DNA from: Candidatus Thorarchaeota archaeon
GTDB taxonomy: Archaea; Asgardarchaeota; Thorarchaeia; Thorarchaeales; Thorarchaeaceae
Reading direction: 5' to 3'
DNA: 64,000 nucleotides
NCBI GenBank assembly: GCA_046758445.1
Contig: JBHIAE010000002.1
Location: 64,001-128,000 of the forward strand
Part shown: one piece after another, positions 59,081 to 59,850 of the stretch
Layout of the letters: every line of letters begins with the position of its first letter
Position numbering within the stretch: the first letter of the stretch is position 1
Translations under genes and position numbers: made by a program
The notes under the pieces: generated by a model
The model's database searches: none
Seen by the model: only the letters and a program-made list of their open reading frames with translations
Told to the model about the DNA's origin: nothing

Positions 59081-59110
59081 TTTGAGAGCCGCTCCGACTC
59101 TCGACAGGTC
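59081..59110 (+). other. 16S intron 1 (30 nt, after about E. coli 908)
   Basis: Removal restores GACTGAA|ACTTAAAGG; relaxed BHB (ACTG/CAGG), stem TTGAGAG/CTCTCGA. Confidence 0.9.
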
Positions 59111-59554
59111 ACTTAAAGGAATTGGCGGGGGAGCACCACAAGGGGTGGAGCTTGCGGTTTAATTGGACTCAACGCCGGAAAACTTACCCGCCCAGACAGC
59201 CGGATGAGAGCCAGACTGATGATCTTGCTCGACGAGCTGAGAGCTGGTGCATGGCCATCGTAAATTCGTGCCGTGAGGTATCAGCTTAAGTGCTGCAACG
59301 AATGAGATCCCTGCCACCTAGTTGCCAGCCGGGGGCTTCGGCCCTGTCGGGGCACACTAGGGGGACCGCCAGCGAAAAGCTGGAGGAAGGTGGGGGCCAC
59401 GGTAGGTCCGTATGCCGCGATATGGGCGGGGCCACACGCGTGCTACAATGGCAAGGACAATGCGTTACGACACCGAGAGGTGAAGTCAATCGCGAAACCT
59501 TGTCGTAGTTGGGATCGGGGGTTGGAACTCACCCCCGTGAACCTGGAATCCCTA

Positions 59555-59584
59555 TCGACTGCAGACTCCCTGTAGTCGGGGAAA
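59555..59584 (+). other. 16S intron 2 (30 nt, after about 1346)
   Basis: Removal restores GGAATCCCTA|GTA; BHB helix TCCC/GGGA, stem CGACTGCAG/CTGTAGTCG. Confidence 0.92.
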
Positions 59585-59624
59585 GTATCCGCGTGTCACT
59601 ATCGCGCGGAGAATACGTCCCTGC

Positions 59625-59654
59625 AGGGGACGTGAATCCCACGTACCCGGGGAA
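59625..59654 (+). other. 16S intron 3 (30 nt, after about 1386)
   Basis: Removal restores GTCCCTGC|TTCTTGCACACA; helix CCCT/GGGG, stem GGGGACGTG/CACGTACCC. Confidence 0.9.
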
Positions 59655-59757
59655 TTCTTGCACACACCGCCCGTCGCTCCATGCGAGCGGCTTCTGGGTG
59701 AGGCGTTATCCTTTGGGTGATTACGAATCTGGGGGTCGCAAGTAGGGAGAAGTCGTA

Positions 59758-59787
59758 ACTGCGTCACACTTCGTGGCGTGGCGGAAC
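59758..59787 (+). other. 16S intron 4 (30 nt, after about 1499)
   Basis: Removal restores AAGTCGTA|ACAAGGTA; helix GTCG/CGGA (relaxed), stem CTGCGTCAC/GTGGCGTGG. Confidence 0.9.
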
Positions 59788-59819
59788 ACAAGGTATCCGT
59801 AGCGGAAGCTGCGGATGGA

Positions 59820-59850
59820 AGAAGTAGAGAGTCACTCTCGCTTCCATCAA
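59820..59850 (+). other. 16S intron 5 (31 nt, after about 1531, just before the anti-SD)
   Basis: Removal restores GGATGGA|TCACCTCCT; perfect helix GATG/CATC, bulges GA/A and AA/T. Confidence 0.92.

Follow-up and report, generated by a model that had tools for sequence, protein, structure and literature searches.

Five putative bulge-helix-bulge mini-introns in the 16S rRNA gene of a Thorarchaeota archaeon and the guide-like segments of a neighbouring TnpB locus

Introns in archaeal 16S ribosomal RNA (rRNA) genes have been catalogued at positions 374, 548, 722, 781, 803, 901, 907/908, 919, 978, 1093, 1205, 1213 and 1391, and short hairpin-only introns (<50 nt) were described at seven of these 13 loci (Jay and Inskeep 2015, PMC4496867). 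Here we analysed a stretch of 64,000 nt from a Candidatus Thorarchaeota archaeon (the window; assembly GCA_046758445.1, contig JBHIAE010000002.1, positions 64,001 to 128,000), in which the 16S rRNA gene carries five inserts. Being 30 or 31 nt long, hairpin-forming and free of an open reading frame (ORF), these inserts fit the short class. From their geometry, their polymorphism and covariation among relatives and the enzyme genes of the genome, we infer that they are very probably mini-introns of the bulge-helix-bulge (BHB) type, which would be removed by EndA, have their exons ligated by RtcB and be absent from the mature rRNA. Only site 908 is in the catalogue; 1346, 1386, 1499 and 1531 are unlisted, 1386 being a distinct site 5 nt from 1391, and the same is true of 1340 and 1376, which are occupied in relatives (PMC4496867). 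The original prediction, made from the letters of the window, had named 908 among the classic sites and placed the other four outside them, and this is borne out. It had also allowed that identical sites and architecture might already be catalogued, which holds for the hairpin class and for 908 and does not hold for the other four sites. Full-text literature searches found no report of rRNA introns in Asgard archaea or Thorarchaeota. The kind of element and site 908 are known. The novelty lies in the lineage, in the density and in the other four sites.

Data from the gene itself showed a clean and uniform layout. The Rfam match to SSU_rRNA_archaea (SSU, small subunit) spans 58207-59794 with 1191 bits and is the single SSU match genome-wide in this metagenome-assembled genome (MAG; 113 contigs, 3.25 Mb, 92.7% complete). 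Deleting the five inserts leaves a 16S of 1505 nt with the universal 16S consensus at every junction, namely GACTGAA-ACTTAAAGG, CCCTA-GTATCC, CCCTGC-TTCTTG, GTCGTA-ACAAGG and GGATGGA-TCACCTCC (hyphens mark the joints). Positions in E. coli numbering were worked out again by hand, with the 907-926 and 1392-1406 primer sites and the 16S 3′ end as anchors. A single plan underlies all the inserts: in order, 1 nt, the first 9-nt arm, a 5-nt loop, the second 9-nt arm, 4 nt and 2 nt, with one nucleotide more in insert 5. Of the nine inner pairs, 8–9 are formed, and the 4-nt element pairs with exon positions -6 to -3, leaving two 3-nt bulges around a 4-bp helix. In archaeal tRNA introns, cleavage at a BHB takes place after the second nucleotide of the bulge. 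A geometry scanner coded blind, with the plan alone, found inserts 1–4 at identical coordinates. The five coordinates first proposed thus proved exact, together with the restored length of about 1500 nt, the loop sequences given for introns 1–4 and the absence of an encoded homing endonuclease; the proposed stem of roughly 9 bp and the 4-nt match to the upstream exon in strict or relaxed form were also found, with central helices of 4/4 pairs in introns 2, 3 and 5 and 3/4 in introns 1 and 4. In alignments with related 16S, all insert sites lie in invariant sequence blocks, and the 1499–1501 linker adjoins A1492, A1493 and U1498. Leader and trailer pair into a pre-16S processing stem (RNAcofold, -113 kcal/mol), the trailer holding two local hairpins besides. 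Since the gene is the sole 16S gene and has a normal leader-trailer stem, it must be functional.

Within the family, 16S genes either lack a given insert cleanly or carry it as a 29–33-nt block, independently of the other inserts. Aligned with related 16S genes, every one of the five stands out as a clean gap of 30–33 nt, present or absent, which is far beyond what chance would give. Site 908 is occupied in the window and in genomes G003, G053, G074 and G055, with homologous inserts of 30–41 nt in other Thorarchaeota; 1346 in the window, G017 and the MAG TEKIR_14; 1386 in the window, G018, G055, G060, G009 and TEKIR_14; 1499 in the window, G017, G074, G061, G068, G057, G060 and G007; and 1531 in the window and many genomes. 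TEKIR_14, another Thorarchaeota MAG, has all five sites filled by different sequences. Additional 30-nt inserts were found in G024 (near 1362) and in G061 (at 1376). When 185,579 species genomes were scanned, a 26–38-nt insert at 1531 was confined to Thorarchaeota-type 16S genes and copies of their 3′ ends; bacterial and Woesearchaeota matches to the pattern were rejected as false, being intron-less genes with a second TCACCTCC downstream. In 37 metagenome contigs, mini-introns were restricted to 908, 1340, 1346, 1376, 1386, 1499 and 1531, and large introns occurred solely at 908. The patchy presence expected for Asgard 16S is thus seen both in same-family genomes and in these contigs.

The alleles concerned can be very close. 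Alleles whose exons are 99.6–99.9% identical (0.1–0.4% different) vary in intron content: L141 and L142, compared over 1505 nt, differ in the 1340 intron, and L138, on a 243-kb genomic contig, has no intron where L155 has three. Near-identical exons with unlike intron sets indicate that gain and loss are recent and occur at the DNA level. The family-level metagenome scan returned DNA alleles with and without introns and nothing recognisable as a transcript; a spliced form of the window's lineage, looked for as a contig with 0–30-nt gaps at both 1346 and 1386, was not found in the metagenome scan.

Covariation supports the proposed pairing at sites 1499 and 1531. At 1499, 95.7% of the cells are paired among nine sequences and six pairs changed on both sides; at 1531, 92.3% are paired among 11 sequences and eight pairs changed on both sides, including an exon/intron double change from GAUG/CAUC to GCUG/CAGC. 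In the shuffle control for both sites, 0 of 500 shuffles reached the observed pairing, and slid registers gave 25–59%.

The genome also encodes the enzymes that such a pathway would use. EndA is represented by two paralogs (195 and 250 aa), both with the N and C domains (PF01974/PF02778), and RtcB is present (590 bits). Asgard EndA is of the broad-specificity (alpha-beta)2 type with an L1 loop (PMC5829648). Of 36 tRNA genes, 20 contain introns according to ARAGORN, many of which measure 30–36 nt. A tRNA gene in the window (Rfam tRNA, 54.6 bits) has a 33-nt intervening sequence at the anticodon region; ARAGORN calls it tRNA-Ala (CGC), with a 30-nt intron. The 23S gene (G000:C53, locus L037) has a 31-nt insert of the mini-intron plan and, 27 nt downstream, a second insert of ~216 nt; both are missing from the congener G011, and relatives hold other inserts near query position 2582.

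Several observations weigh against a simple BHB reading. The central helix of introns 1 and 4 has an outer purine-purine mismatch, and at 1499 and 1531 the outer helix between the exons is weak or missing, so that these motifs are of the relaxed kind. Single-sequence folds give the hairpins with z-scores that are modest overall: for introns 1, 4 and 5 the folding energy is ordinary (z = -0.4 to -1.4), and intron 3 at its energy minimum favours a competing helix. For intron 2, the minimum-energy fold gives the whole BHB motif, outer exon helix included (z = -2.5). Scanning the entire genome for the mini-intron geometry gave 39 strict matches, scarcely more than expected from shuffled sequence (19 compared with 12 over the first 20 contigs). 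The Rfam scan of 55000-64000 returned nothing except SSU rRNA and one tRNA. A group I or group II intron was considered and rejected, because 30 nt is too short for a ribozyme core or an intron-encoded protein and there is no Rfam match.

Alternatives to splicing were weighed on the same evidence. The inserts might stay in the mature 16S rRNA as small, unspliced expansion hairpins, in line with the unusual expansion segments for which Asgard large-subunit rRNAs are known (PMC7594248). However, expansion segments belong to variable surface regions, away from functional centres (PMC7594248; also established ribosome structure), and were not found in the SSU of Lokiarchaeota (PMC7594248), whereas the present sites lie in the conserved functional core. 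Moreover, every insert keeps the helix with the upstream exon and the two 3-nt bulges, which an expansion hairpin does not need, and insert-bearing and insert-free alleles are as close in their exons as described above. Retention is thus improbable. Cutting by EndA without ligation, which would leave a fragmented 16S held together by base pairing, shares all of its motif evidence with splicing, and BHB processing can yield permuted or circular 23S rRNAs in archaea (PMC7758197, PMC12918454). Against it, the 3′ pieces would measure only 103, 32 and ~9–11 nt and include the anti-Shine-Dalgarno tail, and RtcB is encoded. We know of no precedent for such fragmentation of 16S and regard it as very unlikely. 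That the 16S gene is a dead pseudogene or an artefact of assembly or binning is scarcely credible, although the MAG is in 113 contigs: the exons of the sole SSU gene are intact, and assemblies made independently in different studies, dozens of them, have the same sites filled by inserts that have diverged and covary.

In accordance with the splicing interpretation, the pre-16S rRNA would be transcribed with the inserts, each folding as a hairpin of 9 bp with a 5-nt loop. The four nucleotides before the last two of the insert would pair with exon positions -6 to -3 and form the two bulges; EndA would cleave in both, and RtcB would ligate the exons and circularise the 30-mers. Five splicing events would then be required to mature a small subunit, and four would fall within the final ~200 nt, around the decoding centre.

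How such introns move is suggested by one pair of sites. Mean ungapped identity between 908-type and 1340-type introns is 0.60, equal to that within the 908 type, and other pairs of sites give 0.25–0.48. The exon contexts are alike as well (CTGAA-A at 908, CTGGA-A at 1340), and the same intron 3′ strand, CAGG, can pair with both. Related introns in similar exon contexts are what ectopic reverse splicing, or another insertion process dependent on pairing, predicts. This kinship fits ectopic transposition and is the sole evidence for reverse splicing in the present data. Accordingly, two parts of the original prediction stand in part. The inserts form one family by their shared geometry, and by sequence, kinship across sites is demonstrable only for the 908 and 1340 types; spread by EndA/RtcB reverse splicing is consistent with that pair and is not proven by it.

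For site 1531 a DNA route exists as well, through cassettes of the 16S tail. One 243-kb contig has a 16S gene without intron 5 and a displaced tail copy with intron 5. In the present genome, the 3′ end of 16S is repeated in one orientation at 85–97% identity, at 59800-59935 of the window, at G000:C2:129166-129218 and in five further copies on G000:C14 (about 37.4, 43.6, 46.1, 48.0 and 65.2 kb). The repeat runs from the 3′ strand of h45 through the intron-5 hairpin and the anti-Shine-Dalgarno sequence into the trailer, as far as the processing stem. In many Thorarchaeota MAGs the copies begin exactly at ATCCGTAGCGG, at the bond between 16S positions 1506 and 1507, which is also the boundary of the 1499 TnpB target described below. 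The repeats part blocks of accessory genes, with toxin-antitoxin pairs, an ATP-binding cassette (ABC) transporter and a metal ATPase. The first cassette after 16S (60857-63653), between the 16S end and the next tail repeat, is a mercury resistance cassette (Table 1).

The positions of the introns may also reflect nucleases that target the 16S gene. Site 908 is a homing-endonuclease (LAGLIDADG) site: in the 16S of G024, an intron of ~850 nt at 908 (L008:2406-3253) encodes a 262-aa LAGLIDADG_3 protein. For the sites of the 3′ domain, the candidate is a TnpB-like gene of 588 aa at G000:C2:134674-136440, which lies beyond the window and starts 10.8 kb downstream of the 16S 3′ end. The protein has a Cas12f1-like TNB domain, matches TnpB/Cas12f chains in PDB and has ~9 TnpB paralogs elsewhere in the genome. 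Three guide-like segments follow tnpB, 12.6 kb downstream of 16S, each directly after GTCGG and each copying intron-less 16S: the first is antisense over site 1346 (16/17 nt), the second antisense over 1499 (14/14 nt) and the third sense over 1531 (15 nt). CGGAT precedes all three targets in the 16S gene, so that a GRAT motif stands by each, and the intron sites lie inside the targets by 2 nt (1346), 5–7 nt (1499) and 3 nt (1531). Mini-introns as footprints or miniature copies of TnpB elements were considered and rejected, because they lie 2–10 nt inside the targets and not at the GRAT boundary, and they are unlike the element's end.

This arrangement is conserved beyond the present genome. 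Orthologous loci in at least ten other genera hold one to four guide-like segments in varying combinations; relatives include a sense segment over 1386, whose target is preceded by GAAT. The order 16S - giant ORF - tnpB is kept in G018, G068 and G017; in G011, tnpB is missing, as are all of these introns. In the window, an ORF of 221 aa downstream of 16S is 46% identical to residues 1376-1611 of a 1717-aa protein encoded beside tnpB, and is apparently a fragment copy of that gene. No guide against 908 was found, and no GRAT motif lies suitably near that site; the guide of the other TnpB clade (TGCATGCATCC...) had no rRNA match, and a target-adjacent motif (TAM) was not recoverable from the aligned left ends of TnpB paralogs.

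Three mini-introns here, and four across the family, thus sit at sites at which TnpB would be aimed, which hints at why the introns exist. The family has eight distinct mini-intron sites, and five of these lie under guide segments, which together cover ~6% of 16S (P about 3e-5). Sites 1340 and 1346 interrupt one and the same 17-nt target, and 1376 lies in the GAAT motif of the 1386 target. A segment of G017, ACCTTGTGTTCCGCCA (L159:11583-11604, downstream of the syntenic tnpB), matches the window's intron-4-bearing allele over 16 nt (antisense, beside ACGGAT) but not the intron allele that G017 itself carries. In G019, a similar segment is directed against a further allele of the intron. A segment against the intron-bearing allele of a relative looks like an arms race.

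The strongest competing explanation is that the overlap of guides and introns has no function: the guide-like segments would be relics of old element insertions by GRAT motifs in 16S, and the introns would have spread only by reverse splicing at the RNA level. We give this explanation a little less than an even chance. It agrees with the weak guide-intron association within genomes (13/7/7/12, odds ratio 3.2, Fisher p = 0.11, with genomes that are not independent) and with guides against uninterrupted own sites: G053 has no intron at 1499 and yet a guide that matches this site perfectly, and G068 and G074 have none at 1346 and guides against it with one or two mismatches. All of these also count against a TnpB link. 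It agrees further with the absence of the canonical RuvC-II glutamate from all family members, glycine being aligned at this position in every paralog, and with the single sequence family formed by 908-type and 1340-type introns in similar exon contexts, as reverse splicing predicts. The RuvC-I and RuvC-III aspartates are kept, and branches with a rearranged RuvC-II occur in archaea and need not be inactive (PMC10691335). Relics account less well for the crowding of five sites into so small a part of 16S, for the sixth site in a motif, for the two sites that break one target, and for segments that are guide-sized and occur on both strands.

Alternatively, the mini-introns of the 3′ domain could be the immunity half of a functional RNA-guided system of collaborative homing or arms race, a proposal that we put forward tentatively, from sequence, as the less probable side of the question. 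According to this proposal, TnpB with its guide array would cut 16S that lacks the matching intron or bears a foreign intron allele, and repair from the intron-bearing chromosome would copy the introns and possibly the accessory island between 16S and tnpB. If true, BHB mini-introns would persist in the ribosome core because nuclease targets are broken by them. In DNA the introns turn over fast, and they are probably kept at these sites as breakers of nuclease targets, namely the LAGLIDADG site at 908 and the TnpB guide targets at 1340/1346, 1386, 1499 and 1531.

Table 1. Features of the 16S locus and its surroundings (window coordinates unless a contig is given; intron sites in E. coli numbering)
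Feature	Coordinates	Strand	Remarks
Leader of pre-16S	58081..58127	+	5′ strand of processing stem
16S rRNA gene	58207..59859	+	unspliced 1653 nt, without the five inserts about 1502 nt; Rfam RF01959; genome's only SSU gene
Mini-intron 1	59081..59110	+	30 nt, after A908 (h27); loop GCUCC; central helix ACUG/CAGG, 3 pairs and A-G mismatch
Mini-intron 2	59555..59584	+	30 nt, after 1346 (h29/h43 junction); loop ACUCC; central helix UCCC/GGGA, 4/4
Mini-intron 3	59625..59654	+	30 nt, after 1386 (h28 3′ strand); loop AAUCC; central helix CCCU/GGGG, 4/4 including one G-U
Mini-intron 4	59758..59787	+	30 nt, after 1499 (slidable to 1501; h44/h45 linker by decoding site); loop ACUUC; central helix GUCG/CGGA, 3/4
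Mini-intron 5	59820..59850	+	31 nt, after 1531 (3′ tail, h45 to anti-Shine-Dalgarno); central helix GAUG/CAUC, 4/4
Trailer of pre-16S	59888..59990	+	3′ strand of processing stem
tRNA gene	55848-55951	-	
ORF, 221 aa	60062-60727	-	
ArsR-type regulator	60857-61183		mercury cassette
MerA with HMA domain	61239-62945		mercury cassette
MerB	63093-63653		mercury cassette
tnpB and guide-like segments	G000:C2:134674-136620		~6.7-8.6 kb past window end; locus L032:10875-12821
23S insert, 31 nt	14752-14782 (G000:C53, L037)		
23S insert, ~216 nt	about 14810-15026 (G000:C53, L037)		

Our results extend rRNA BHB introns from hyperthermophilic Thermoproteota to Asgard archaea and add four insertion sites in the decoding and 3′-terminal core of the small subunit, where ribosome maturation would hinge on five splicing events of the tRNA type. 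The introns interrupt the universal primer and probe sites 907/926, 1392/1406 and 1492, and hence 16S surveys that start from DNA may underestimate Thorarchaeota or assign wrong sizes to their amplicons. Gain and loss at the level of strains, a copy apparently transposed from 908 to 1340 and the overlap with TnpB guides make the persistence and movement of ORF-less introns a testable question, and one that concerns organisms close to the eukaryotic stem.

Among described systems, the short 16S introns of Thermoproteales, Desulfurococcales and Aigarchaeota (PMC4496867) are alike in being ORF-less hairpins with BHB junctions and patchy occurrence, in sharing site 908 and in that some of them adjoin sites of introns with homing endonucleases. 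Unlike them, the present inserts occur in mesophilic Asgard archaea of the Thorarchaeota, five to a gene and with a very uniform 30-nt layout, and their sites, save 908, are tied to TnpB guide targets and not to LAGLIDADG enzymes. The non-canonical tRNA introns of Asgard archaea (PMC11291895; bioRxiv 10.64898/2026.10.13.758758) share the splicing motif, similar sizes and presumably the same enzymes, and differ in that the host molecule here is an rRNA; in the text searched, neither tRNA paper speaks of rRNA introns.

The nuclease side has its own relatives. Collaborative homing (phage T4 mobE/I-TevIII, PMC2790892; cyanophage F-CphI/psbA, PMC6083498) resembles the present case in that the intron is ORF-less, its host gene is linked to the gene of a nuclease, and the sequence targeted spans the insertion site in alleles without the intron. 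The candidate nuclease here differs in being an RNA-guided TnpB with several guide segments, and the intron in being of the BHB type and not group I. TnpB and omega-RNA homing in IS200/IS605 elements (PMC8612924, PMC10055086), group-I IStrons (PMC10690162) and Asgard TnpB (PMC10691335) have in common with the present locus the signature of the TnpB fold, a guide RNA gene that overlaps the 3′ end of tnpB, targets by a TAM-like motif and a scaffold with GTTCACTCA; the clade found here resembles the aCas1-linked Asgard TnpB groups that bear this motif (PMC10691335). Unlike in those systems, the locus is fixed beside 16S across genera, holds up to four guide-like units, has a non-canonical RuvC-II residue and would be aimed at a housekeeping gene of the host instead of its own empty site.

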